Under the pieces are notes generated by a model. That model ran no database searches. It was given only the letters and a program-made list of their open reading frames with translations, and was not told where the DNA came from. The translations under genes were made by a program, and so were the position numbers. 55,788 nucleotides of DNA, from positions 1 through 55,788 of the forward strand of contig JBAYGJ010000002.1 of NCBI GenBank assembly GCA_041666685.1, written 5' to 3'. Positions 1,478-52,996 of the stretch are shown here, one piece after another. The stretch's first letter is position 1. The number at the start of each line of letters is the position of its first letter. The DNA is from Patescibacteria group bacterium (GTDB taxonomy: Bacteria; Patescibacteriota; Patescibacteriia; UBA10025; JAHIVO01).

Positions 1478-1639
1478 TGGTGCGCCTAGCAGGACTCGGG
1501 TGCTGGGCAGCGCCCCCGCAGTGCGGGGTCGACGCTCAACAACCCCTCATTATTTTCGGGGTTTGTTTCGCTCCTGCCCTTCGAGTCCAGTGCCATTTTA
1601 ATTGGTGGTACTAAACTGAAGTCTATATACTTTTCGAAG
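1478..1639 (-). repeat. tRNA-Lys 3'-end copy (with encoded CCA) preceded by a ~140-nt structured insert
   Basis: 1480-1498 matches 1639-1657 of the intact tRNA-Lys at 18/19 positions (T-loop 3' part, T-stem and acceptor 3' strand). It continues into CCA (tgg 1478-1480), which the intact gene lacks. The segment between holds GC hairpins CCCCGCA/TGCGGGG (1513-1528) and CCCC..GGGG (1543-1561), inside a longer imperfect stem (1491-1513 with 1569-1590). Confidence 0.7.
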
Positions 1640-1711: not shown

Positions 1712-1946
1712 GTAAGATGGGGATAGTGTAGCAAGTAAGTGAAATTATTTCCAGGCCGGCACCATTTACCCCTAGGATTATTAATACTCAGTAAAAATTG
1801 CGCTGAGGAATACTATCAACATCAGGATACACATACTGATGACTGCCCAAAACTGCCAGGATTGATATGCTTTTTTCTTTGGTTTTTCTTGTTGTTGGTT
1901 GGGTTGCGGTTGGATTTGTTGATCCATATGATTTGTAAGTTAATTT

Positions 1947-2021: not shown

Positions 2022-2118
2022 TTGTTAAAGTTGCCGCTCTATCCGCTCCGACGCTCCGACTAAAACGTCGGAGGTCCGGAGCCCCGACTATTACGTCGGG
2101 GTTGAGCTACGGGGACTT
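2022..2118 (-). repeat. tRNA-Arg 5' fragment (acceptor 5' strand plus D arm) with a 57-nt twin-hairpin insert in the D-loop
   Basis: 2102-2118 is 17/17 identical to 2007-2023, and 2035-2044 is 10/10 identical to 1996-2005. Between them (2045-2101) are two related hairpins, CCCCGACGTAATAGTCGGGG and CTCCGACGTTTTAGTCGGAG. No anticodon or T arm follows. Confidence 0.7.
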
Positions 2119-2825: not shown

Positions 2826-3113
2826 ATGTTAACCAAACCGGAAAAGGATAAGATTATTGACAAGTATAAGACGCACGCACAGGACACCGGATCGCCGGAG
2901 GTCCAGATTGCCATCCTCTCTGAGGAGATCAGCCGTTTGACCGGGCACCTCCAGGACCACAAGAAAGATTTTTCCTCGCGCCGCGGATTGCTCCGCAAGG
3001 TCGGATTGCGCCGCCGGCTGTTGAAATATCTGGAAAAGGACAACCCGAAAAGTTACGAGAACTTGACCAAGAAACTTAAACTGAAAACTAAGCAGGCTCA
3101 TGATCAAGCATAA
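2826..3113 (+). CDS. rpsO: 30S ribosomal protein S15
   Basis: MLTKPEKDKIIDKYKTHAQDTGSPEVQIAILSEEISRLTGHLQDHKKDFSSRRGLL is the typical S15 sequence. The internal ATG at 2826 is preferred over the ORF-track start at 2775. Confidence 0.93.
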   Translation: MLTKPEKDKIIDKYKTHAQDTGSPEVQIAILSEEISRLTGHLQDHKKDFSSRRGLLRKVGLRRRLLKYLEKDNPKSYENLTKKLKLKTKQAHDQA

Positions 3114-3624
3114 GGATCAGCGAGTCGGCGTTTTCGTCGACGTGCAGAACATGTATTATTCAGCCAAGAACCTTTACGGTCAAAAGGTCAATTTTGGCGA
3201 AATCCTGAAAACGGCCGTTGCAGACCGGAAGCTGATCCGGGCCATGGCCTATGTGATCAAGGCCCAGAACGCAGACGAGCAGAAATTTTTTGATGCACTG
3301 TCAAACCAGGGTTTCGAAGTGAAGATGAAGGACTTACAGGTTTTCTGGGGCGGCCACAAAAAAGGTGACTGGGACATCGGGCTGGCTATGGACGTCATCC
3401 GCCTGTCCACCAAGCTGGACGTGGTCGTATTGGTGACTGGCGATGGGGATTTTGTTCCGTTGATCGAATACATGAAGAACCATGGCCAGTTTGTCGAAGT
3501 GGTGGCATTCGACGAGTCAGCTTCGAGCCAGCTGACTGCCGCTGCTGACGCTTTTACTAATCTGAGTGAAAATAAGAAAAAATACCTTTTACCTGCGTCG
3601 GATATTCGTGGCCGGCGTCGTTAA
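3100..3624 (+). CDS. NYN/LabA-like domain protein (putative RNase)
   Basis: VGVFVDVQNMYYSAKNLYG and VVLVTGDGDFVPLI motifs of the NYN (PF01936-like) family. The start overlaps the rpsO 3' end by 14 nt. Confidence 0.7.
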   Translation: MIKHKDQRVGVFVDVQNMYYSAKNLYGQKVNFGEILKTAVADRKLIRAMAYVIKAQNADEQKFFDALSNQGFEVKMKDLQVFWGGHKKGDWDIGLAMDVIRLSTKLDVVVLVTGDGDFVPLIEYMKNHGQFVEVVAFDESASSQLTAAADAFTNLSENKKKYLLPASDIRGRRR

Positions 3625-3821
3625 TTTGGGCAATGCTCTTTGGAATTACAAATAATTAATAGGCCGTTCGTCAATCTGCCAGGAACCGTGAATTACGCTT
3701 ACTACTTTTCGTAGACTTTTATCTCCAGTGAACTGTCGGTCCACTCCGGATAAAGGTTTATGAAGTGGTAGCGCTAGAGCCGGATCCGCAACGTGATGGG
3801 CAGGCCAAGAAGGAAAAAAGT

Positions 3822-6095
3822 ATGTCTAAGATCGAAAAGTTTTCTACAGAAATCGCCGGCCGCGAGCTGACTTTTGAAGTCGGCCGATTCGCCGGCCAGG
3901 CCAATGCCGCCTGTGTCGTGCAGTATGGCGATACGGTCGTACTCGCTACGGCTGTCATGAGCAAAAATACGCGCGAAGGCATCGATTACTTCCCGCTCCT
4001 CGTTGATTACGAAGAGAGGCTGTATGCCGCCGGGAAAATTAAAGGCTCGCGTTTCATCAAACGCGAAGGACGGCCTACTGACGAAGCAATCCTGACTTCC
4101 CGTCTGGTAGACCGATCAATCCGCCCGTTGTTCAATCAGTCAAGCCGGCAGGACGTGCAGGTGGTGCTGACCGTATTGTCCGTCGACCAGGAGAATGATC
4201 CTGATATCATTTCACTTCTGGCGGCCTCATGCGCGCTGTCGATTTCCAATATTCCCTGGAGCGGCCCGGTGGCCGGCGTACGTATCGGCCAGATCAACGG
4301 CGAGTGGGTGCTGAATCCGACCTATGCGGCCCGTGAAAAAAGCGTCATGGACCTGGCCGTGATCGGGAAAGCTGATAAAATTACCATGATCGAGGCCGGC
4401 GCGCTCCAGATGTCCGAAGATACCATGTATGCCGGTATGGAGTTTGCGCAGAAGCATATCGCTAAACTCATTTCTTTCATCAATGACATCCAGACGAAGA
4501 TCGGCAGGCCGAAAGAGTCTATTGCCTCTACGGGACCGACGGAAGAGGAGAAAGCTAAGTCGGAAAAACTGAAGGAAAAAGTAAAGAATTTCTGTCAGGC
4601 CAAGATCGGGTCAGTTTTTGAACATAAGGACCGGCATGCCCAGGGCGAGGCGATGGATGCCCTCCGGACCCAACTGGAAGAAGTACTCAAAGCGGATAAT
4701 GAAGTTACGAAAGAAGAGCGGGCCAAAGGGCTTAAAATGGTGGATGGCATATATGAGGTAGAGTCCCGGCGCATGGTACTGGAAGAAGGCCGGCGCGTTG
4801 ATGGCCGGGCAGTAGATGAAATCCGTCCGTTATCGGCTGATGTGGCATTACTCCCCCGCACGCATGGTTCCGGTTTATTCAACCGCGGTGAAACCCAGGT
4901 ATTATCAGTAGTTACGCTCGGATCCCCAGGTGACGAACAGACGATGGACTCAATGGAAGAGTCTGGTAAAAAGCGTTTTATGCATCATTATAATTTTCCG
5001 GGCTTTTCCACCGGTGAGGTGGCTCCTGTCCGATCGCCAGGCCGCCGCGAAATTGGCCATGGCGCGTTGGTAGAAAAAGCCCTGTCCCAAGTGATGCCCG
5101 CCAAGGATAAGTTCCCCTATACGATTCGTGTCGTATCGGAAGTGCTGTCATCAAACGGCTCAAGTTCGCAGGCATCGTGCTGCGGTTCGTCATTGGCGCT
5201 GATGGATGCCGGCGTGCCGATTCTCGATCCGGTAGCCGGTATTGCGATGGGTTTGATTTCCGACGAAAAAGACCCGTCACGATTCAAGGTGCTGACAGAT
5301 ATCCAGGGCATTGAGGATCATAATGGTGATATGGATTTCAAGGTGGCCGGTACTAAGAATGGCATCACGGCCATCCAGATGGACGTGAAACTGGACGGCA
5401 TTTCGCTCGAAGTGGCCAGACAGGCACTTGATGGCGCCAAGAAAGCCCGCTTGCAGATATTGGATGTGATGACAAAAGCCATCCCGGCTCCGCGGGCCGA
5501 GCTGTCAAAATATGCGCCGCGCATCACCATGCTGAAGATCAATCCGGAACTGATCCGCGAAGTGATCGGCAAGGGCGGCGAAACGATCAATAAGATCATT
5601 GATGAATGCGGCGGAGCTGATGTCATCAAGATTGATATTGAGGATGATGGTCTGATATACATCACTTCGGCTCATGCTGACATGGCGAAGAAGGCTGAAG
5701 ATTGGATCCAGAATATCGTTAAAGAAGTATTGCCGGGAGAAATATATGAAGGAACGGTGACGCAGATCCTGAAAGACCGCAACAGCGGCGGTGAAATCGG
5801 CGCGGTCGTGGAAATAGCGCCAGGCAAGGACGGCATGGTGCACATTTCGGAATTTTCTCAGGGACGTATCAGGAATGTTTCTGATGTCGTACATGTGGGG
5901 CAAAAGATAAAAGTCAAAGTGGTTGACGTGGACAAGGAGCGGGGCCGGACGAGTCTGTCGGTCAAGGCTTTGGGGACGGACAGTGATTTGGTCATCCCGC
6001 CGTCAGCTCTTGATACGTCAGGCGGTTTTGACCGAGGCGGATCCCGCGGACGCCCGAGCGGTGGTCGTCCCCCATTCAGACACGGCCCGAGATAA
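3822..6095 (+). CDS. pnp: polynucleotide phosphorylase with an RG-rich C-terminal tail
   Basis: Full-length PNPase architecture: two RNase PH domains, KH (GKGGETINKI) and S1 (GTVTQILK..GMVHISE). The ATG at 3822 is preceded by AAGGAAAAAAG. The rpsO-pnp synteny is classical. Confidence 0.95.
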   Translation: MSKIEKFSTEIAGRELTFEVGRFAGQANAACVVQYGDTVVLATAVMSKNTREGIDYFPLLVDYEERLYAAGKIKGSRFIKREGRPTDEAILTSRLVDRSIRPLFNQSSRQDVQVVLTVLSVDQENDPDIISLLAASCALSISNIPWSGPVAGVRIGQINGEWVLNPTYAAREKSVMDLAVIGKADKITMIEAGALQMSEDTMYAGMEFAQKHIAKLISFINDIQTKIGRPKESIASTGPTEEEKAKSEKLKEKVKNFCQAKIGSVFEHKDRHAQGEAMDALRTQLEEVLKADNEVTKEERAKGLKMVDGIYEVESRRMVLEEGRRVDGRAVDEIRPLSADVALLPRTHGSGLFNRGETQVLSVVTLGSPGDEQTMDSMEESGKKRFMHHYNFPGFSTGEVAPVRSPGRREIGHGALVEKALSQVMPAKDKFPYTIRVVSEVLSSNGSSSQASCCGSSLALMDAGVPILDPVAGIAMGLISDEKDPSRFKVLTDIQGIEDHNGDMDFKVAGTKNGITAIQMDVKLDGISLEVARQALDGAKKARLQILDVMTKAIPAPRAELSKYAPRITMLKINPELIREVIGKGGETINKIIDECGGADVIKIDIEDDGLIYITSAHADMAKKAEDWIQNIVKEVLPGEIYEGTVTQILKDRNSGGEIGAVVEIAPGKDGMVHISEFSQGRIRNVSDVVHVGQKIKVKVVDVDKERGRTSLSVKALGTDSDLVIPPSALDTSGGFDRGGSRGRPSGGRPPFRHGPR

Positions 6096-7338: not shown

Positions 7339-7962
7339 ATGACAAAACCGACTTGGCGGGAGGAAAACAATCTTTGGGAGAGCGGCTACAAATTTGTGGC
7401 TGGTGCCGATGAGGCCGGGCGCGGCGCATGGGCCGGACCGCTGGTTGCCGCTGCTGTCATCTTGCCGAAAAATTTCAAGGCGACGGGATTGAATGACTCG
7501 AAAAAACTTTCTCCGATTCAGCGAGAACGGTTGTTCGGGATTATCAAATCCCAGTCAGTTGCTTGGCAAGTGTCAATTATTTCCGTCCAAGAAATCGACA
7601 GGCGTGGTGTCGGTCGAGCAAATATGAAAGCGTTGCGGCAATGCGTTGAGCATTTAAAAAAGAAACCTAACTTCGTTTTGGTCGACGGCTTCAAAATTGA
7701 TTTCGATTCAACCCTATCAAAAAGAATAATCCATGGCGATGCGCGTGTTATGACAATCGCTGCCGCTTCCATCATCGCAAAGGTTACTCGGGACCACATC
7801 ATGGTCGGTCTCCATAATAAATTCCCGCAGTATCATTTTGACAGGCATAAAGGATACGGTACGGAATTGCATCATCAAGCCATAAAGCGGCACGGCGTAC
7901 TGGCACTACATCGACGTTCATATTTGCCAATTAAGAAGTTAGTAAAAAACATACATACGTAG
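7339..7962 (+). CDS. rnhB: ribonuclease HII
   Basis: VAGADEAGRGAWAGPLVAAAV (DEAGRG motif) and ..DSKKLS..GDA..IAAASIIAK. ATG 7339 lies after the terminator. Confidence 0.9.
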   Translation: MTKPTWREENNLWESGYKFVAGADEAGRGAWAGPLVAAAVILPKNFKATGLNDSKKLSPIQRERLFGIIKSQSVAWQVSIISVQEIDRRGVGRANMKALRQCVEHLKKKPNFVLVDGFKIDFDSTLSKRIIHGDARVMTIAAASIIAKVTRDHIMVGLHNKFPQYHFDRHKGYGTELHHQAIKRHGVLALHRRSYLPIKKLVKNIHT

Positions 7963-15313: not shown

Positions 15314-16213
15314 ATGGCACGCGATATTATCATCATGATCGAAGGCGGGGCCATGCTTGGCGTGTTCGGCGCCGGCGTAGTGACGGCCTTCCAGGAGGCG
15401 GACATCTACCCCCGGATACATAGTGTTTATGGAGCTTCAGCCGGCGCCCATGATTTGGCGTATTTTTTGGCAGCCCAGGCGGACAGCCGGCAGGCGCGGG
15501 TCGGCTCAAGCATTTATTATGAGGATTTAATCGGCAGGCGATTTATCAACCCAAGTCGTTTTTTTGTTTACATCTGGGACCTTATCGTACGCAGGTTCAG
15601 GCCCCGCCACGCTGTACGCCATATTCTTGATCTTGATTATATCATCCACGTCGAGCAGACTGTTAAAAAACTTGATGTTCGTGCCCTCGTGGGCCAACTG
15701 ATCCCATTTTATATCGCGGCCTACGATGTTGCCAGGGGGCAGGTTGTCTTTTTGGACGGCAAGCAGGACACGTTCCAAACGTTGAAAGCTTCCTCCACAG
15801 CTTCGCCGTTTTATGCCAATACCGTCGAGGTTCGGGGGCGCCAATATCTCGACGGCGGGTTGATCCAAGATTGGGATGTCGAAAAGATTGTTCGTGAACA
15901 TCCGGAAAAGAAGATTGTGTATGTCATCAATAATAAAAAGAACCCTTGGTTTACGGGTTTCGTGTTGCCCTATTATTTGTTAGAAGCTGTACTTAACCTG
16001 ATGTGTTTCGGATGGAAAATTTCTTGGTCACGACTAAAAAATTCTTTTGCCTATGAGACCAAGAAAAAATTATTCAAATTTCCGAACGTGACCGTGGTGA
16101 GTAATGTTCTGGAGTTCACGAACAGTATTACCGATAAGGCAGTGTTGCTCAGCATTTACGAGCACGGCCTCGTAAAAGGCAGGGAGGCTTTGGTTAGGTT
16201 AGGTTTAGCTTGA
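15314..16213 (+). CDS. patatin-like phospholipase
   Basis: Oxyanion GGAMLGVFGAGV, nucleophile elbow YGASAGA (GXSXG) and catalytic DGG. Confidence 0.8.
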   Translation: MARDIIIMIEGGAMLGVFGAGVVTAFQEADIYPRIHSVYGASAGAHDLAYFLAAQADSRQARVGSSIYYEDLIGRRFINPSRFFVYIWDLIVRRFRPRHAVRHILDLDYIIHVEQTVKKLDVRALVGQLIPFYIAAYDVARGQVVFLDGKQDTFQTLKASSTASPFYANTVEVRGRQYLDGGLIQDWDVEKIVREHPEKKIVYVINNKKNPWFTGFVLPYYLLEAVLNLMCFGWKISWSRLKNSFAYETKKKLFKFPNVTVVSNVLEFTNSITDKAVLLSIYEHGLVKGREALVRLGLA

Positions 16214-20951: not shown

Positions 20952-20963
20952 ATTGTTTGATAA

Positions 20964-21116
20964 AGCGGGGAACGGCCCGCCTCGACTCGCATTGTTCGTC
21001 GACGCGAGGCGGGGACTTCTTCTCCCCCAATCTCGTCGCAAGCCTCCTCGATTTCCTCCGAAGCCTGTGGCCCTCGCTTCAACTCCTTCGGAGCGCTCGG
21101 GTCCGCTTCGAATCCG
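20964..21116 (-). repeat. GC-rich hairpin element carrying a 12-nt copy of the tRNA-Gly(GCC) 3' end
   Basis: 20964-20975 (agcggggaacgg) is identical to 21176-21187. It is followed by the stems CCCGCCTCG/CGAGGCGGG (20976-21013) and CTCCGAAG/CTTCGGAG (21056-21093), and a T-loop-like TTCGAA at about 21107. Confidence 0.5.
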
Positions 21117-21391: not shown

Positions 21392-21483
21392 TGGAGGCGT
21401 GAGCGGGAATTCTTCTCGTTCCTCGAAGCCGGCCGCCCTTCGCTTTATCACCTTCGGTGCGCTCTGGTCGGCTGCAATTCCCG
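21392..21483 (-). repeat. tRNA-Cys 3'-end copy (with CCA) whose T-loop holds a ~62-nt insert
   Basis: 21395-21411 is 17/17 identical to 21503-21519 and is preceded by tgg (CCA), which the intact gene lacks. CGGGAATT (21404-21411) and AATTCCCG (21476-21483) close a hairpin around a GC-rich insert containing cccttcgc. Confidence 0.65.
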
Positions 21484-21502
21484 TATATTTATTAAGGTGA
21501 CT

Positions 21503-21574
21503 AGGCGTGAGCGGGAATTGCACCCGCGTATAGAGGTTTTGCAGACCTCTGCCTTACTACTTGGCTATCACGCC
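21503..21574 (-). tRNA. tRNA-Cys (anticodon GCA), no encoded CCA
   Basis: Reverse complement: GGCGTGA-TA-GCCA..GGC-A-GAGGT-CTGCAAA-ACCTC-TATAC-GCGGG-TGCAATT-CCCGC-TCACGCC-T. The U73 discriminator and A13/A22 mismatch are typical of tRNA-Cys. Confidence 0.85.
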
Positions 21575-21578
21575 TTAA

Positions 21579-21643
21579 AGAGGTGGTTTTGTCCCGCATT
21601 CGTGGCGGGGCAGACCTCTGCCTTACCACTTGGCAACGTAGCC
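21579..21643 (-). pseudogene. tRNA-Cys-like 5' two-thirds with a different acceptor strand and a hairpin inserted in the anticodon loop
   Basis: 21610-21643 matches the D arm and anticodon-stem region of the intact gene (21541-21574), but the acceptor is GGCTACG instead of GGCGTGA. After CTGC a 19-nt hairpin (CCCGC-cacgaat-GCGGG, 21593-21609) interrupts the anticodon. There is no T arm or 3' strand. Confidence 0.6.
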
Positions 21644-23580: not shown

Positions 23581-23589
23581 ATTTTGAAA

Positions 23590-23601
23590 AGCGGGTAGGG
23601 A
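23590..23601 (-). repeat. 12-nt copy of the tRNA-Gly(TCC) 3' end (outer 3' piece)
   Basis: agcgggtaggga is identical to 23620-23631. Confidence 0.6.
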
Positions 23602-23606
23602 CTTAT

Positions 23607-23704
23607 TTAAGTCACATTGAGCGGGTAGGGAGAATCGAACTCCCGGCAACAGGTTGGAAACCTGTGGTATTACCACTATACGATACCCGCTCAATGTGAC
23701 TTAA
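23607..23704. repeat. perfect 21-nt inverted repeat framing the intact tRNA-Gly(TCC)
   Basis: ttaagtcacattgagcgggta (23607-23627) is the exact reverse complement of tacccgctcaatgtgacttaa (23684-23704). This extends the 7-bp acceptor stem by 14 bp. Confidence 0.9.
23620..23690 (-). tRNA. tRNA-Gly (anticodon TCC), no encoded CCA
   Basis: Reverse complement: GCGGGTA-TC-GTAT-AGTGGTA-ATAC-C-ACAGG-TTTCCAA-CCTGT-TGCC-GGGAG-TTCGATT-CTCCC-TACCCGC-T. Confidence 0.9.
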
Positions 23705-23782
23705 TTGTTGTAAATATGTTTGTGAATCGCCCGTGAACCACTGAATGGTTCAGGGCGTCATGTACCCTTGAGTGGTACATAA

Positions 23783-23837
23783 CGAACTCCCGGCAACAGG
23801 TTGGAAACCTGTGGTATTGCCACTATACGATACCCGC
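23783..23837 (-). pseudogene. 55-nt 5' copy of tRNA-Gly(TCC), positions 1-55, truncated in the T-loop (outer 5' piece)
   Basis: 54/55 identical to 23636-23690 (single g/a difference at 23819 vs 23672). The copy ends at ..GGGAGTTCG. Confidence 0.85.
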
Positions 23838-30275: not shown

Positions 30276-30420
30276 TGGTCGGGGTGCCCGGGACCCTTCG
30301 ACTTCGCTCAGGGCAGGCTTGTCACCGCCATCCTGTCATCTGACAGGATAGGTCCCGGCGGACCCCCCCGACGATACCGTCGGAAATGATTCCAGCCCTC
30401 CCCAGAGACTGGTCCGCTGA
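30276..30420 (-). repeat. tRNA-Pro 3'-end copy (with CCA) joined to a ~130-nt hairpin-rich insert
   Basis: 30276-30291 is 16/16 identical to 30449-30464, with a similar 3' flank. CCGGGACC (30288-30295) pairs with GGTCCCGG (30351-30358) around the motif cccttcgacttcgctcaggg (30294-30313) and the hairpin ATCCTGTCA/TGACAGGAT. Confidence 0.7.
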
Positions 30421-30448: not shown

Positions 30449-30525
30449 TGGTCGGGGTGCCCGGACTTGAACCGGGGACCTCTCGCTCCCAAAGCGAGCG
30501 TTCTAGCCAACTGAACTACACCCCG
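30449..30525 (-). tRNA. tRNA-Pro (anticodon TGG), CCA encoded
   Basis: Reverse complement: CGGGGTG-TA-GTTC-AGTTGGCTA-GAAC-G-CTCGC-TTTGGGA-GCGAG-AGGTC-CCCGG-TTCAAGT-CCGGG-CACCCCG-A-CCA. Confidence 0.9.
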
Positions 30526-32360: not shown

Positions 32361-32435
32361 TTGTAGTGGTTGTATCCACTCTATAATAACATGGCTAATT
32401 TATTCTTGGAATGGGATGGTGCCGAGGGCCAGGAT

Positions 32436-32930
32436 TTACTTCAATTTGTTTAGTTGAGTTTTATCCTGGCTGAATTTTACCTCTAAATCAGTAAATAATT
32501 CCAAAACTCCATCTTTAAGAAGCCCCCGAACAATTTGAACCGCAAAATTTGAATCCTGCGCAAGATCGTCAATGCGCACTTTTCGGGCCCGCATTAACCA
32601 GGGCAGATCCTCCCTTGTAGCTCCGAAATAAATATTTGGAATTTTGGCCTGAAAAATTGCCGCACCACACATGATGCAGGGTTCATGGGTTGAGTAAATT
32701 GTACAATCGCTTAAATTATGCGTCCGGAGTATTGTGCAGGCTTTCCGAAGTGCCTGCATTTCTGCGTGTGCAGTCGCGTCACCTTTTGCAATATTTTCTG
32801 CGTGGCCTTTTGCAATAACTTTGCCATTGCACGTTATTACTGCACCAAACGGAAAATCGCCAGCTAGCTTCGCTTTCTTAGCTTCCTGGATGGCAAGGCG
32901 CATGAACGTGTGGTGTAGATTTTCCCTCAT
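32436..32930 (-). CDS. CDA-fold nucleoside/tRNA-adenosine deaminase (TadA or guanine-deaminase type)
   Basis: HAEMQAL and HEPCIMCGAAI zinc-binding motifs. 164 aa. Confidence 0.75.
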   Translation of the reverse strand: MRENLHHTFMRLAIQEAKKAKLAGDFPFGAVITCNGKVIAKGHAENIAKGDATAHAEMQALRKACTILRTHNLSDCTIYSTHEPCIMCGAAIFQAKIPNIYFGATREDLPWLMRARKVRIDDLAQDSNFAVQIVRGLLKDGVLELFTDLEVKFSQDKTQLNKLK

Positions 32931-33019
32931 GCAGTAAGAGTTTGTATTAATGAAAAGCTACCAGATATGCTCAATGGGGCGTTGACAGCTCTTTAAGTCC
33001 GGAGTTTTCCGCACATCTT

Positions 33020-33057
33020 CCGAGGGCCACCTACGGTCGGACTGGCGACTCAAGGAT
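33020..33057 (-). repeat. tRNA-Phe 3'-half copy with a substituted T-loop
   Basis: ccgagggcca (33020-29), cggactggcgac (33038-49) and caaggat (33051-57) match 33084-93, 33098-109 and 33111-17. The T-loop gaat is replaced by cctacggt. Confidence 0.65.
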
Positions 33058-33081
33058 GAAAAGGGTAATTCTGCTCCCAAA

Positions 33082-33153
33082 TGCCGAGGGCCAGAATCGG
33101 ACTGGCGACGCAAGGATTTTCAGTCCTTCGCTCTACCACTGAGCTACCTCGGC
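33082..33153 (-). tRNA. tRNA-Phe (anticodon GAA), no encoded CCA
   Basis: Reverse complement: GCCGAGG-TA-GCTC-AGTGGTA-GAGC-G-AAGGA-CTGAAAA-TCCTT-GCGTC-GCCAG-TCCGATT-CTGGC-CCTCGGC-A. Confidence 0.9.
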
Positions 33154-33163
33154 ATGTGACCGT

Positions 33164-33261
33164 CCTCGGCATTTGGGAGTAATTAGCACCATTCGCTCTT
33201 CCGGGGCGCTTCTATGGGCGCGCCCGCTCTGCTTGTGCAGAGCCCACTTCGCTACCTCGGC
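33164..33261 (-). repeat. two upstream copies of the tRNA-Phe 5' acceptor strand separated by GC hairpins
   Basis: cctcggc (33164-70) plus atttgggag (33171-79) is the exact complement of the tRNA 3' strand plus trailer, giving a 16-bp alternative helix. gctacctcggc (33251-61) is 11/11 identical to 33143-53 and is followed on the minus strand by the hairpins GCTCTGCACAAGCAGAGC and GGGCGCGCCC. Confidence 0.65.
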
Positions 33262-33300
33262 GGATTCACCGGCATAAGCGAGTATTATGATACGTGTCCA

Positions 33301-33377
33301 TGGTGGGGACGAGAGGAGTTGAACCTCTGACCTTCACAATGTCAATGTGACGCTCTAACCAACTGAGCTACGTCCCC
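33301..33377 (-). tRNA. tRNA-Val (anticodon GAC), CCA encoded
   Basis: Reverse complement: GGGGACG-TA-GCTC-AGTTGGTTA-GAGC-G-TCACA-TTGACAT-TGTGA-AGGTC-AGAGG-TTCAACT-CCTCT-CGTCCCC-A-CCA. Confidence 0.9.
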
Positions 33378-33383
33378 GTGGTC

Positions 33384-33466
33384 TGGTGGGCGACCCAGGA
33401 GTTGCACCCTTCGACTTCGCCACCTCGATTTCACTCGGTGGCTTCGCTCAGGGTAGGCCTGGGACC
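33384..33466 (-). repeat. tRNA-Ile 3'-third copy (with full CCA) carrying a ~50-nt insert between the T-stem 5' strand and the T-loop
   Basis: 33385-33408 is 24/24 identical to 33518-33541, and cctgggacc (33458-66) equals 33540-48. The insert carries a split cccttcgacttcgc / cttcgctcaggg motif around the hairpin GCCACC..GGTGGC. Confidence 0.8.
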
Positions 33467-33519
33467 GCTCAAGTATCCAATAACAAATTTCTTCAGCATG
33501 AATGCTATTATTCCCTCGG

Positions 33520-33593
33520 TGGGCGACCCAGGAGTTGCACCTGGGACCTCGTCATTATCAGTGACGCGCTCTAACTACCTGAGCTAGTCGCCC
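33520..33593 (-). tRNA. tRNA-Ile (anticodon GAT); only CC of CCA encoded
   Basis: Reverse complement: GGGCGAC-TA-GCTC-AGGTAGTTA-GAGC-G-CGTCA-CTGATAA-TGACG-AGGTC-CCAGG-TGCAACT-CCTGG-GTCGCCC-A. Leader TTCCCTCAGT and trailer ACCGAGGGAA add 10 bp (one A/C mismatch) to the acceptor helix. Confidence 0.9.
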
Positions 33594-33623
33594 ACTGAGG
33601 GAACAAGTATGGCTACCTGCTTG

Positions 33624-33655
33624 CCCCGAGCGAAGTCGAGGGGAGCTAGTCGCCC
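33624..33655 (-). repeat. 13-nt tRNA-Ile 5' copy fused to the shared GC motif
   Basis: gagctagtcgccc (33643-55) is identical to 33581-93. The adjacent ccccgagcgaagtcgagggg (33624-43) is the shared motif in the orientation complementary to the copy inside the 3' fragment. Confidence 0.7.
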
Positions 33656-33756
33656 ATGCCTTTTTTCCAACAAAAAAACTACAACCTGATGGTACTATTG
33701 TAGTTTATCATACATAAAAAATCAAATGACTGGAGGGATGCTTATAAACCCCTTAG

Positions 33757-33787
33757 CAACCAGCAGGTGGTAAAGAATACGAATCAA
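33757..33787 (-). promoter_or_regulatory. 3' strand of the 16S rRNA processing stem
   Basis: caaccagcaggtggtaaagaatacgaatcaa is nearly perfectly complementary to 35389-35418 on the other side of the 16S gene. Confidence 0.7.
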
Positions 33788-33851
33788 CTCAATGATGTAT
33801 ATCTATACGTACGTCAGAGACGCACGAATATCGACAAATTGGTTACTCCTT

Positions 33852-35347
<1,496 letters not shown>

Positions 35348-35388
35348 TAGTTGGAGTTTTTAACTAGAAAAACTCCCAAAAAAAGGAA

Positions 35389-36282: not shown

Positions 36283-38274
36283 TTAGAGTATTTTATTCAA
36301 CCTCTCTAGTTTTGATTTTGTTTCAAGGCTCAGTACTTTGGTAGTAATATATTTTAATTTATTTCTGTCAAATTCATACTTTACCCATTTATTAGTAATA
36401 GCCTGTTCTCTGAATGGGATAAGTATTTCCCTGGTTATATCGATTAGATTGAACATCCATTTAGTTCTGGTTGGCGTTTCGTGGTATTTTGTTAATAACG
36501 TGGTTTTTACGTGTTCAATCAGATTAATGATTAATTCGACAGTTAGATCAATCGCGCCGGATTTCCAAAGCAATTTGTTTATCTCAATTTTATCTTTGGC
36601 GCCTAGTTTTTTGTTCAGAGATTGGTATAGATATTGTCTTTCATCTGGTGTTAAAACCTGAGAATAGAGAGCTACTAAATATGCGATATCGGTTTTTCCT
36701 TCAATAATATCAGAGTGAGACACGCCTTTCATCCCCTTGCTCATTCCGGTAACTTCCTCGACAATTACATAGTCACCCAAATCATTCCTGATCATTTGGA
36801 TAATCCCATAAAACATCCCGATTTTCGGCGCTATGTCATTAATTTCGTTAGCGTTTAAGATTTGCGCTTCTTTATTGCCAGCCCTCGCCGATAAATCTCC
36901 TATGGCTTCAAAGAATCCGCCGCAAATCCCATAGATCCGTTGAATGTAGAGGTCAATCACCTCGTCGAACTTTTTATTTTTTAATAATTTCTTTTTACTT
37001 ACGGAATTAAAAGTAAGTTGTAAATCAATGACTTGGCCGCGATACATCAAGAGATTACACTCATTCATAATTCCAGCCAATTTTTTTCCAATCGTCAAAT
37101 TTTCGGAAGCTATGATAAAAAAGTATTTTAAGGTGAGCAAATGGCCCAAAATTCCGGTGTAAATTGCATCACGGCGTGTAAATTTTTTCCAGACAGTTTC
37201 AAGCTTTTGCCGATAACTTGAATTATCGAAAACATCGTCAAGGGCGTACGTGTTCATCCAATTATATAATTCCACAACCACGCCGAGATCATAAGGAAAC
37301 GATATTGATTTAACAAATTTTTTTTCAAGAACTAAGTGATGGTTGACTAAATCATATAATTCAAAGAATAATTCTGGACGGACTTTTTTTACTCCATGGT
37401 GCCTGCCTTCAACTTTGGTAAAAGGCGGATTTATGGAATGCTCCAGACAATTAAGAATTTTTTCCGGTGATTCATCCCACGATTCAATTACGGCAGCAAT
37501 GCCGGAATCTATTTCTTTTTCTGTCAGTTTGTTCTTGAAGTATTTTGAAATGTTCCTCTCAACCTGACAAACCAAAAGCGAAACTTTGTCTGAATTAAAC
37601 TGAATTTTTTTCAGAATCTGCAATTCTTTGAGTATTTGCTTATCAGAAAGCTTATTAGTAAAGACCATTTTCCCCAGACTCTCTTTGTTAGCAATTTCTC
37701 GGGCCCTTTCGTCAACCTTATAATTGATAATTCCAGAACGTGAATAAATTGATCGATAATAGTCATCCAGGTATTCTGAAATCTTTGACTCAAATTGATT
37801 TTCATTTTGTGCAAATAGTACAGTTGTGTGCACAAATTTTTGATGATTTTTTACTATTTCCGCGACATTTTTATTGGCAGTAAGAATTGCGTTAATGCTA
37901 AAGCTAACCATCCATTGCGAGGCGTAGTAATCAACATGTTCTACGTCTTCGATAAGCATTATAACTGGTTTGCTTTTGGAAATCGCATATCCGCACTCCC
38001 AAGTGCTGTCTGTCCCCGTTGGAGAACCGTCTAGTGTTTTATATTTTTTCATATAAACAACCAGTGCGTCAGCATGATTGATAGCATCCAGGTCAAGACA
38101 AGCAATACCAATTGGTATAAACCGGTGATCATCTGGCGTATCTTGAGTCCCCGGTTCAAACAAGCCAATGCTTCTGTTGAAAAATCGTGAATATTTATTA
38201 CTAAAATATTCCCTCCAGAGTGTTATACCGCTGGCAAGGTAGAGATGATATTTGAATTGTTTTTCTTTCTGCAT
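36283..38274 (-). CDS. fusion protein: nucleoside 2-deoxyribosyltransferase-like N-domain plus polyprenyl-synthase-like (isoprenoid synthase fold) C-domain
   Basis: N-terminus: LYLASG.. and DALVVY..GTDSTWECGYAISKSKPVIML (NDT-family pattern). C-terminus: YALDDVFDNSSYRQ (DDxxD-type first Asp-rich motif), IIQMIRNDLGDY (degenerate second motif) and IIEGKTDIAYLVAL (GK.T lid). The gene is visibly more AT-rich than its neighbours. Confidence 0.5.
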   Translation of the reverse strand: MQKEKQFKYHLYLASGITLWREYFSNKYSRFFNRSIGLFEPGTQDTPDDHRFIPIGIACLDLDAINHADALVVYMKKYKTLDGSPTGTDSTWECGYAISKSKPVIMLIEDVEHVDYYASQWMVSFSINAILTANKNVAEIVKNHQKFVHTTVLFAQNENQFESKISEYLDDYYRSIYSRSGIINYKVDERAREIANKESLGKMVFTNKLSDKQILKELQILKKIQFNSDKVSLLVCQVERNISKYFKNKLTEKEIDSGIAAVIESWDESPEKILNCLEHSINPPFTKVEGRHHGVKKVRPELFFELYDLVNHHLVLEKKFVKSISFPYDLGVVVELYNWMNTYALDDVFDNSSYRQKLETVWKKFTRRDAIYTGILGHLLTLKYFFIIASENLTIGKKLAGIMNECNLLMYRGQVIDLQLTFNSVSKKKLLKNKKFDEVIDLYIQRIYGICGGFFEAIGDLSARAGNKEAQILNANEINDIAPKIGMFYGIIQMIRNDLGDYVIVEEVTGMSKGMKGVSHSDIIEGKTDIAYLVALYSQVLTPDERQYLYQSLNKKLGAKDKIEINKLLWKSGAIDLTVELIINLIEHVKTTLLTKYHETPTRTKWMFNLIDITREILIPFREQAITNKWVKYEFDRNKLKYITTKVLSLETKSKLERLNKIL

Positions 38275-45753: not shown

Positions 45754-45861
45754 GGGACGGGTAGGGATCCCTCAACATTGCCACTTCGACTTCGCTCGTG
45801 GGCTACGTTCGGGATATTTTTTCTGCCGAAATTTTTTCGCTCAGGAGGAACTTGAAAATTC

Positions 45862-52306: not shown

Positions 52307-52996
52307 CTACCAGCCTTTTGCTTTCAGTCCGGCTTCGGCTGCGGCGACTTGTGCCTCTTGTTTTGACAATCCCTCACCGGTCGCAATCTGCTCTTTGCCC
52401 AGGAATAATCCGATGACGAAATTTTTTGCGTGGTCTGGGCCGTTTTCGGACAGAACCTGGTAGGACGGGGTGATCCCGTAATTTTCCTGGCTCAATTCCT
52501 GGAACCGGCTTTTCGGGTCTTGGTAGGCTTTGTTGGCGATGATCCCTTCCAAATGGATAAGGATCCGTTCGTGGATGAATTTTTTTGCCGGCTCCCATCC
52601 CTGATCCAGGTAGATGGCGCCGATCAGCGCTTCAAAAGCGTTGGCCATGATGAACTGCCTGGCCTTGGAGTTGGCGTCTTTTGATTCCCCCTTTGACAGA
52701 TATAAGTAGCCGTTCAGATCGCAGGTCAGGGCGATTTGGGCAAGCATTTTTGAATTGACCAGGCTGGCGCGCCAGTTGGTTAGGTCGCCCTCGGGATTCG
52801 GGTACCTCGCGTAGAGGTATTCCGTCACGATCAGCTCCAGTACCGCATCGCCCAAAAATTCCAGCCGTTCATTATGCGGCAGGGGGAAATCCGGATGCTC
52901 ATTGAGATACGAACGATGGACCATGGACTGGCGGAGCAGGTCCTGGTTCTTGAACGTGATGTTGATGGTTTTTTCTAGCTCGTTTATTTCTTTCAT
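52307..52996 (-). CDS. rnc: ribonuclease III
   Basis: NERLEFLGDAVLEL signature and a C-terminal dsRBD (..GPDHAKNF...GEGLSKQEAQVAAA). Confidence 0.93.
   Translation of the reverse strand: MKEINELEKTINITFKNQDLLRQSMVHRSYLNEHPDFPLPHNERLEFLGDAVLELIVTEYLYARYPNPEGDLTNWRASLVNSKMLAQIALTCDLNGYLYLSKGESKDANSKARQFIMANAFEALIGAIYLDQGWEPAKKFIHERILIHLEGIIANKAYQDPKSRFQELSQENYGITPSYQVLSENGPDHAKNFVIGLFLGKEQIATGEGLSKQEAQVAAAEAGLKAKGW

Follow-up and report, generated by a model that had tools for sequence, protein, structure and literature searches.

A complete tRNA-Ile(GAU) gene nested within a split second copy of the same gene is found at positions 33384-33655, on the minus strand, of the patescibacterial DNA analysed here (55.8 kb; the whole stretch is hereafter called the window). 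The nested gene and its split outer copy are real, and with good confidence they are read here as the wreck of an ancestral tRNA-Ile(GAU) that was split by a full replacement copy of the gene; the locus would be one example of a turnover extending across the lineage. This turnover apparently affects most tRNA genes of the patescibacterial clade to which the window belongs, and apparently it is undescribed: no description was found in the literature of nested tRNA relics in Patescibacteria, nor of the sequence of the hairpin motif present in the relic. As a rule, few genes in a genome are as stable as those for tRNA. In these ultra-small bacteria, which have single-copy tRNA sets, most tRNA loci consist of a replacement gene surrounded by the layered wrecks of earlier copies.

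The tRNA-Ile locus comprises the following elements, with coordinates on the minus strand:

33655..33643 (minus): 5' relic, GGGCGACTAGCTC, a copy of tRNA-Ile positions 1-13
33642..33624 (minus): motif following the 5' relic, CCCTCGACTTCGCTCGGGG
33620..33642 (minus): hairpin repeat in the relic D-loop, in antisense orientation, with GAGCGAAGTCGA on the plus strand at 33628-33639
33618..33613 (minus): D-loop remnant AGGTAG, positions 14-19, as read from the sequence
33603..33594 (minus): leader arm TTCCCTCAGT, half of an inverted repeat prolonging the acceptor stem of the inner tRNA
33593..33520 (minus): intact inner tRNA-Ile(GAU), found by ARAGORN (reaching 33518) and Rfam (RF00005, 62.5 bits)
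33520..33511 (minus): trailer arm ACCGAGGGAA, pairing with the leader TTCCCTCAGT
33476..33458 (minus): first part of the 3' relic, degenerate ATACTTGAGC followed by exact GGTCCCAGG
33457..33409 (minus): insert of ca. 49-51 nt in the relic T-loop, between positions 53 and 54
33408..33384 (minus): second part of the 3' relic, GGTGCAACTCCTGGGTCGCCCACC at 33408..33385 plus an A at 33384 that completes CCA

The 5' relic contains the acceptor 5' strand, nucleotides 8-9, and the 5' strand of the D-stem. The identity of GGGCGACTAGCTC to tRNA-Ile positions 1-13, pointed out earlier in a reading of the sequence alone, is indeed 13/13, and a 13-mer search allowing at most one mismatch gave three matches, two of them exact, with 0.07 expected by chance. 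In the first part of the 3' relic, ATACTTGAGC (33476..33467) is a degenerate remnant of the anticodon loop and stem, and GGTCCCAGG (33466..33458) corresponds exactly to the variable loop and the 5' strand of the T-stem, while the second part comprises the T-loop, the 3' strands of the T-stem and acceptor stem, the discriminator, and CCA. GGTGCAACTCCTGGGTCGCCCACC is identical to the intact gene at 24/24 positions (its 23-nt core is expected 0.00 times by chance), and the relic encodes the full CCA, which is absent from the inner gene, encoding only CC and reading CCG; on both points the sequence-only reading was correct. The outer copy thus covers positions 1-19 and ca. 34-76, being degenerate before position 44, and ca. 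20-33 are missing. It had been described as lacking the whole region from the D-loop to the anticodon, which holds for positions ca. 20-33 but not for AGGTAG and ATACTTGAGC. Since remnants of both the D-loop and the anticodon loop are retained, the outer copy is what remains of a whole gene, and since positions ca. 20-33 are lost, no complete tRNA can be assembled from its pieces. It also has the properties of a pseudogene: neither ARAGORN nor Rfam, even at E<=5, recognised it as a tRNA, both finding the inner gene only, and its T-loop is split between positions 53 and 54. Over the 20-34 kb part of the window, Rfam returned no family for any insert or relic, either at the gathering threshold or at E<=5.

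The same anatomy recurs throughout the window. All of its ten tRNA genes lie on the minus strand, and eight have partial self-copies within a few hundred nucleotides: a 3' piece for tRNA-Lys, tRNA-Gly(GCC), and tRNA-Pro, a 5' piece for tRNA-Arg, both a 5' and a 3' piece for tRNA-Cys and tRNA-Ile, pieces on both sides of tRNA-Gly(UCC), and one 5' and two 3' pieces for tRNA-Phe. The recurring pattern is that of an interrupted older copy, in whose D-, anticodon-, or T-loop GC-rich hairpins are inserted, with a complete gene of the same isoacceptor inside or beside it. A scan of GC content did not single out the inserts (the genome has 48.7% GC).

The TrmD protein encoded next to the locus assigns the window to a bacterium of the Patescibacteria (CPR, for candidate phyla radiation), and its relatives retain the gene order SMC-S16-(beta-helix)-KH-TrmD-16S-tRNA-Ile-(Val)-Phe...Pro...Gly. 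In the loci fetched for comparison (designated L with a number), a self-copy was defined as an exact 12-mer on the same strand within +/-400 nt of the tRNA, with the opposite strand serving as control. Over all fetched loci, self-copies accompany 33 of 113 tRNAs, as against 0 of 113 on the opposite strand. Only three single cases (L017, L044, and L071) lie outside the clade that shares the TrmD-16S-Ile-(Val)-Phe-Pro synteny; apart from these, the other Paceibacteria-like genomes and other phyla among the fetched loci are clean. The positive loci of the clade are the window, L004, L005/6/11, L009, L033, L039, and L050, joined later by L088, L092/93, and L094. Their 16S rRNA identity to the window is 97.1% for L009, 92.8% for L088, 91.6% for L092, 91.5% for L005, 89.4% for L094, 89.3% for L004, and 84.8% for L033. 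The contigs of the three closest relatives by TrmD, L001-L003, end at the 16S gene, and a metagenome scan with a pattern derived from the spacer found the L009 contig again and nothing else.

This recurrence makes it scarcely credible that the nests are artefacts of metagenome assemblers that collapsed or chimerically joined repeats. The region is rich in repeats and adjoins a 16S gene, a frequent break site, as the ends of L001-L003 illustrate. However, the same anatomy is present in independent JGI, ENA, and NCBI assemblies for which the assemblers differed, three records (L005, L006, and L011) are identical to one another, and genomes have orthologous nests in common.

The relatives differ in what has remained of the older gene. 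L004 and L092/93 carry one clean tRNA-Ile immediately after the conserved spacer block CTGTAGTTTTTTT, i.e., at the site occupied in the window by the 5' relic. As the gene of these un-nested relatives starts at that site, and as the L009 spacer aligns up to the same point, the relic marks the ancestral position of the gene. The inner tRNA-Ile of L009 is 76/76 identical to that of the window; its leader and trailer are unlike those of the window, and the relic consists of GGGCGACTAG, an unrelated 57-nt two-hairpin insert, and CTCAGGTA, with no 3' relic. In L009 a deletion extends from the Ile locus into the first nucleotides of the old tRNA-Val. This gene is intact in the window and in L009 a relic, its D-loop being interrupted by a new tRNA-Val that has another acceptor stem. 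L005 has both outer pieces of tRNA-Ile, with inserts unrelated to those of the window, and, downstream of its tRNA-Phe, an array of 3' fragments. Several layers of relics are present in L033 and L094. The layer-2 tRNA-Ile copy of L094, which is older and riddled with hairpins, carries the window's leader TTCCCTCAGT, so that a cassette like that of the window had already been superseded there. In L033 (15215-15305), a 45-nt unit composed of tRNA-Ile positions 1-27 and TTCACCCCGTACCAAAGG forms a tandem array of three ahead of the intact gene; the acceptor type is the old one in the first unit and the new one in the next two.

The sequence-only reading had inferred that the outer pieces could pair through their acceptor strands and adjoining motifs into an acceptor/T-arm minihelix enclosing the real tRNA, with a logic like that of archaeal split-tRNA leaders. 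As a functional RNA, such a minihelix would guide processing, as an entry site for RNase P/Z or RNase III, or would yield a two-piece tRNA-like RNA ending in CCA. The structural part of this proposal stood up well. The motif after the 5' copy is complementary to the insert in the 3' copy (inverted matches of 22 nt at 82% and 17 nt at 82%), and the duplex of the two Ile inserts has an energy of -38.6 kcal/mol, compared with -21.9 +/- 3.8 kcal/mol for shuffled sequences, none of 300 being as good. When 33384-33655 (272 nt) is co-folded, the minimum free energy structure is exactly the nested one (-125 kcal/mol, z = -6.75). Further points in favour of function are the CCA encoded by the outer copy, the agreement of the window Ile relic with its own functional copy at 52/52 positions, including a lineage-specific G55, and the manner in which relics follow the functional copy across lineages. 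The outer pieces thus do belong together, enclose the real tRNA, and can pair in silico, but a functional design resembling a split tRNA is unsupported, and such a function is improbable. Pairing between the 5' and 3' inserts is significant at the window Ile locus only, among the nested loci tested; it is not so at L005 Ile (54/300 shuffles as good), L033 Ile, L005 Gly, window Phe, or window Cys, and the Ile inserts of L009 and L005 are unrelated to those of the window. Nor are the fragments kept in close relatives, since both are absent from L004 and L092/L093 and the 3' piece from L009. The minihelix fails on these two grounds, unconserved pairing and absent or degraded fragments; moreover, the outer T-loop is interrupted at 53/54 and positions ca. 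20-33 are missing. A transfer-messenger RNA (tmRNA), including a two-piece form, was rejected as a candidate, there being no ARAGORN match, no G3:U70 pair, and no tag reading frame.

A further argument against function comes from the complementary motifs themselves, which in the sequence-only reading could pair with each other. Judged from their sequences, they are two opposite-orientation copies of one palindromic hairpin repeat with a variable stem and a GAGCGAAGTCGA loop, dispersed elsewhere in the window and in other genomes. Two repeats of the same family placed in opposite orientation explain the complementarity of the flanks without any function; each Ile insert is a hairpin in its own right, and the mutual complementarity is a by-product. 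The reverse complement of the D-loop insert matches the T-loop copy at 17/19 positions, the two differences making up one compensatory stem pair (CCCC/GGGG vs CCCT/AGGG). With up to three mismatches, the 19-mer has three matches in the window, compared with 0.01 expected, and the 12-nt loop occurs exactly three times together with one variant (copies at 30298, 33425, 33628, and 45786), one of the four copies being antisense. The D-loop copy has the stem CCCC/GGGG followed by a CAAG tail. The T-loop insert holds a sense copy, CCCTGAGCGAAG...TCGAAGGG (33453..33442 and 33414..33407), which is broken up by another hairpin, CCACC-GAGTGAAATCGA-GGTGG (33441..33420), with duplication of CGAAG. Two more copies lie outside the tRNA-Ile locus:

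30313..30295 (minus): sense repeat copy CCCTGAGCGAAGTCGAAGG, directly before the tRNA-Pro 3' relic
45783..45801 (minus): repeat copy CCAC-GAGCGAAGTCGAA-GTGG, in an intergenic region

The repeat unit keeps its loop, GAGCGAAG(T)CGA, also written GAGCGAAG(Y)CGA, and varies in its stem, CCCT/AGGG, CCCC/GGGG, CCAC/GTGG, and CCACC/GGTGG having been seen, i.e., compensatory changes around a kept loop. The repeat is also present in the Gly relic of L005, the Phe relic of L009, and L048, and in L026 five copies of either orientation are clustered in a stretch of 300 nt. In IMG/VR, CTGAGCGAAGYCGAAGG has at least 120 matches, often as AGCCTGCC-CTGAGCGAAGCCGAAGG-G, the form found at the window Pro relic, and the stems of these copies are mostly 4-7 bp long. 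The form AGCCTGCC-CTGAGCGAAG(C/T)CGAAGG-G (window 30295-30321) is present in many unrelated viral and metagenomic contigs (L096-L175; at least 120) with unconserved flanks. The repeat is ubiquitous and is absent from Rfam, and a BLAST search of the motif against plasmids gave marginal matches only, inside coding genes. A second hairpin type ends in GGG(G/A)CAAG or, when inverted, begins with CTTGCCCC; the window D-loop insert has this tail, and the GGG(G/A)CAAG ending is ca. 9-fold enriched near tRNAs of the clade.

In copy number well above chance, hairpin form with compensatory stems, occurrence in both orientations, and clustering, the repeat is like repetitive extragenic palindromes (REP). 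With these and with bacterial interspersed mosaic elements (BIME) it shares a short imperfect palindrome present in many copies, in both orientations and in clusters (L026), in non-coding DNA. Unlike classical REPs, it has a conserved loop and a variable stem, the reverse of their organisation, and within the clade it is strongly tied to tRNA relics. No RAYT-type transposase was found within the window. A hammerhead-like or other ribozyme was considered for the GAGCGAAGTCGA hairpin and rejected, as the core does not fit by eye and Rfam gave no match.

The other relic-bearing tRNA loci of the window, together with the adjacent tRNA-Val, are the following:

33301..33377 (minus): intact tRNA-Val(GAC), 6 nt after the Ile 3' relic
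33018..33262 (minus): tRNA-Phe locus, with the same anatomy as the Ile locus
33262..33250 (minus): tRNA-Phe 5' relic with a D-loop insert
33179..33164 (minus): tRNA-Phe pseudo-5' strand and inverted repeat, pairing with the 3' strand and trailer at 33089..33074
33154..33081 (minus): intact tRNA-Phe
33057..33018 (minus): tRNA-Phe 3' relic
32419..32435 (minus): further copy of the tRNA-Phe 3' end, after a TadA-like gene (32436-32930)
30292..30276 (minus): tRNA-Pro 3' relic; the intact tRNA-Pro is at 30449-30525
23589..23837 (minus): tRNA-Gly(UCC) nest, with relic positions 1-57 (23837..23781), an insert, the intact gene, and relic positions 59-72 (23602..23589)
21394..21634 (minus): tRNA-Cys nest, with a 5' relic that has a hairpin in its anticodon loop (21634..21609), the intact gene at 21575..21502, and a 3' relic whose T-loop holds an insert (..21394)
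20963..20976 (minus): tRNA-Gly(GCC) 3' relic, after a structured insert of ca. 190 nt
2034..2116 (minus): tRNA-Arg 5' relic, with positions 1-16, a two-hairpin D-loop insert, and positions 16-27; the intact gene, 1947-2021, is downstream
1480..1499 (minus): tRNA-Lys 3' relic, after a structured insert of ca. 140 nt

A further feature, which is clade-wide, is the helix formed by the leader and trailer of the inner gene. At the Ile locus, the 7-bp acceptor stem is prolonged by 10 positions, as the sequence-only reading had noted, namely by nine Watson-Crick pairs and one A/C mismatch. The intact tRNA-Gly(UCC) (23690..23619) is enclosed by a 14-bp inverted repeat. Helices of at least eight Watson-Crick pairs that directly continue the acceptor stem were found for 16 of 51 tRNAs of the clade, compared with 0 of 63 elsewhere and 0.7% of shuffled leaders. 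The leader-trailer helix buries the discriminator and CC(A), and its sequences vary from locus to locus with the pairing kept. For tRNA-Phe, the pseudo-5' strand with the leader pairs with the 3' strand and trailer in the window, L005, L009, L088, L092, and L094; the pseudo-strand tracks the GCCGAGG/GCCAAGG acceptor types, and a compensatory change distinguishes L092 (CACTTATGCC/GGCATAAGTG) from L094 (CACTTTTGCC/GGCAAAAGTG). Compensatory changes in the Phe helix also separate the window from L005 and L009, and between the window and L009 there is a paired 4-nt indel. In the tRNA-Gly(UCC) helix of the same two genomes, a 6-nt block differs on both arms (GTCACA/TGTGAC vs TCCTTA/TAAGGA). An A/C mismatch of leader position -3 opposite C75 occurs in three otherwise unrelated helices, those of window Ile (33596/33518), L005 Gly (16868/16943), and L088 Gly.

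At the level of the transcript, the most likely role of the helix would be that of a stem for processing or insulation; it might, for instance, be a target of RNase III, cleavage of which would free the tRNA from the similar strands of the relic. A gene for RNase III is present in the window at 52307-52996. G-U pairs on the sense strand of the helices number 8, compared with ca. 3-6 A-C pairs, a weak lean towards a helix at the RNA level. Covarying helices that bury the discriminator and CC(A) would imply an unusual pathway of pre-tRNA maturation. The compensatory changes may alternatively result from arm-to-arm copying at the DNA level. Template switching is a process that perfects quasi-palindromes. 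In its strongest form this alternative would regard the entire locus as a by-product of local mutation, in which template switching, slippage, and error-prone break repair act on quasi-palindromic tRNA genes and neither a cassette nor an RNA function is involved. Consistent with it, the inverted repeats vary by whole blocks or paired indels in both arms, as if one arm had been copied from the other, a 45-nt unit is tandemly triplicated in L033, and no mobility genes were found in the window. It is nonetheless a slim prospect, given that the same ordered anatomy is met across isoacceptors and that in some nests the inner copy departs from its relic at a number of paired positions and matches alleles of other lineages, for which DNA import is needed.

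One of these foreign alleles is the inner tRNA-Val of L009. Its acceptor stem and T-loop are unlike those of the near-intact relic around it, and its acceptor is of the type found in L050 and L030. The Ile relic of L033 is identical at 67/68 positions to the tRNA-Ile of L005 and at only 56/68 to its own functional copy. As such inner copies differ from the relic and match other lineages, DNA has been imported. L009 shares its Ile, Gly, and Phe alleles with the window, and its Pro allele is like that of L092. Mosaic alleles are apparent when the L009 tRNA-Pro (7526-7599) is compared with those of the window (30449-30525) and L092 (6089-6162), and the tRNA-Gly(UCC) of L094 looks chimeric, with two allele types.

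Other relics resemble their own functional copy. Besides the 52/52 identity at the window Ile locus, Gly relics match their own tRNA at 67/71 and 68/72 positions and the tRNAs of other lineages at 52-54/72, even though L005 and L009 have in common the nesting of the Gly gene and one of the relic inserts. Likewise, AGGTAG of the Ile relic is the D-loop variant of the window's own lineage, and the relics of L005, L088, and L094 each have the D-loop variant of theirs. That relics track the functional copy while the nest is shared across genomes suggests their homogenisation by gene conversion. It is worth adding that the tRNA-Ile(GAU) T-loop of the window (33518-33593) and of L009 (6333-6409), TGCAACT, has a G at position 55, as does the relic at 33384-33408. 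A U (pseudouridine 55) is almost universal at this position of tRNA, and the T-loop of other lineages of the clade reads TTCAACT or TTCGATT.

In the mechanism proposed here, tRNA cassettes flanked by inverted repeats, some of them coming from other lineages, would insert into the cognate resident gene. At the Ile locus, the replacement gene and its 10-nt inverted repeat would have entered the middle of the old gene, approximately in the anticodon region, and small palindromic repeats that form hairpins would afterwards have been added to the D-loop and T-loop of the relic. The inner tRNA would be the sole functional product and the relic pieces co-transcribed by-products. In time the relics would erode, be made uniform with the functional copy by gene conversion, or be lost through recombination between direct repeats, which would account for the mix of 5'-only, 3'-only, nested, and clean loci. 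A cassette that entered a non-cognate tRNA gene would kill the cell, so that such cases would escape observation.

Several observations weigh against this mechanism. The window was found to contain neither an integrase nor a transposase nor a homing endonuclease, and there is no consistent target-site duplication at the cassette borders: ATACTTG flanks the cassette at Ile, standing in the first part of the 3' relic and at 33604-33610, and AATTAC flanks that at Phe, with nothing comparable at Gly-tcc or L033 Ile, for which reason these two sequences are not used as evidence. No filled/empty polymorphism was found between strains, so that cassette mobility can only be inferred. The inserts at relic loop positions are hairpins with perfect stems, unlike the products of simple decay, and the nested fold is very stable (z = -6.75). 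Finally, the persistence of near-identical relics in very small genomes could reflect selection on the relics and not gene conversion.

It would go a step further to regard the inverted-repeat-flanked tRNA genes as new small non-autonomous mobile cassettes, inserting into loops, exchanged between lineages, and surviving only because they replace the tRNA that they destroy ('selfish' replacement), with relics and hairpin repeats kept homogenised and perhaps serving as recombination arms or processing signals. This extension is tentative, and we regard it as rather doubtful. If it were true, essential RNA genes would have a new path by which they are exchanged horizontally and turned over, and a tiny mobile unit of a new type would be involved. 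The 3' 22-mer of tRNA-Ile had no match in viral contigs, and nothing thus points to a phage as vector.

The relics could also be scars of site-specific integration, left by integrases of phages or islands acting at the anticodon or T-loop, the gene being regenerated, a fragment displaced, and the elements later deleted. A regenerated gene with a displaced direct-repeat fragment is the signature of islands and prophages in tRNA and tmRNA genes (PMC4383910), in which the insert splits the gene and brings a restoring sequence, the displaced piece stays as a direct repeat, and the break points lie in loops. The Ile locus likewise has an intact gene and displaced direct repeats (24/24 and 13/13), the break points of the relics are in the D-, anticodon-, and T-loop regions, and downstream 3' fragments form arrays, as at L005 Phe. 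The TadA-like gene between two copies of the tRNA-Phe 3' end has, moreover, the appearance of a mini-island. The likeness ends there, and the scar explanation has little probability. There is no integrase in or near the inserts and no such domain in the window; the inserted DNA is a non-coding unit of just ca. 100-250 nt with a whole tRNA within an inverted repeat; and the supply of tRNA sequence is not one-sided, the whole tRNA lying inside and displaced 5' and 3' fragments on both sides. Upstream 5' fragments and whole tRNAs inside relics are not produced by a single attP x attB exchange, and the inverted repeats around the inner tRNA are not explained by it. A further difference from such islands is that here the events are layered and concern most tRNA genes.

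Three other known systems are comparable with the turnover proposed here. Archaeal split, permuted, and multi-intron tRNAs, as in Nanoarchaeum and Thermoproteales (PMC4090602), are similarly interrupted in the D-, anticodon-, and T-loops, and their pieces are joined by complementary flanks. Unlike them, the present case concerns a bacterium, judged by its 16S, TrmD, and TadA, has an uninterrupted gene inside, and is unconserved in close relatives. The outer pieces do not yield a complete tRNA, the flanks do not covary in L009, L005, or L033, and there is no bulge-helix-bulge, the predicted outer pairing being a continuous helix with small internal loops and without two 3-nt bulges 4 bp apart. 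No EndA or ligase domain was found in the 38 proteins of the window that were scanned. Tandem trnF pseudogene arrays of plant plastomes (PMC3786074) also consist of quickly evolving partial copies beside a functional gene; however, they are tandem and not nested, involve one gene, and have neither an inverted-repeat-flanked replacement nor hairpin inserts. Insertions in CPR rRNA genes (PMC11270868) interrupt stable RNA genes of the same phylum, but these are functional genes, while the inserts described here are in tRNA relics beside an intact copy. Relics and hairpins of this kind can mislead tRNA annotation, island finders, and RNA-motif searches.

Upstream of tRNA-Ile lies the 16S rRNA gene:

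33854..35350 (minus): 16S rRNA gene, Rfam 1433.8 bits

In the window, L004, and L005, 16S is followed by tRNA-Ile, Val, Phe, and protein genes, with no 23S and no tRNA-Ala, and the rRNA genes are thus unlinked. The spacer (33656-33853) has, upstream of the 5' relic, an AT-rich hairpin followed by a T-run at 33676-33706, AAACTACAA...TTGTAGTTT TTTTT, which is kept in L004, L005, L009, and L092. By its sequence it looks like a terminator, with an overlapping weak promoter-like site at 33725..33697.

The TadA-like deaminase gene downstream of tRNA-Phe has a copy of the tRNA-Phe 3' end on either side, one at 33030..33018 and the other, followed by CA, at 32435..32419. In L009, CCCATTCCAAG..., which in the window stands after the second Phe copy, directly follows the Phe relics, and there is no TadA gene. 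The TadA-like gene looks like a one-gene insertion at a tRNA 3' end. Between tRNA-Phe and tRNA-Pro, L004 has a gene with an RNA-ligase domain (5354-5989) and L094 a small GIY-YIG gene (15843-16100).

Apart from RNase III, the RNA-processing enzymes encoded in the window comprise an NYN-domain nuclease (3100-3624) and PNPase (3765-6095). A small open reading frame (ORF) of ca. 55 codons (1780-1945, minus strand), which starts with ATGGATCAACAA and has a hydrophobic C-terminal half, lies between tRNA-Arg and tRNA-Lys. A 663-aa ORF (36283-38274) combines weak N-terminal matches to nucleoside 2-deoxyribosyltransferases with a polyprenyl synthetase domain, and in L094 the gene after TrmD codes for a 323-aa polyprenyl synthetase alone.

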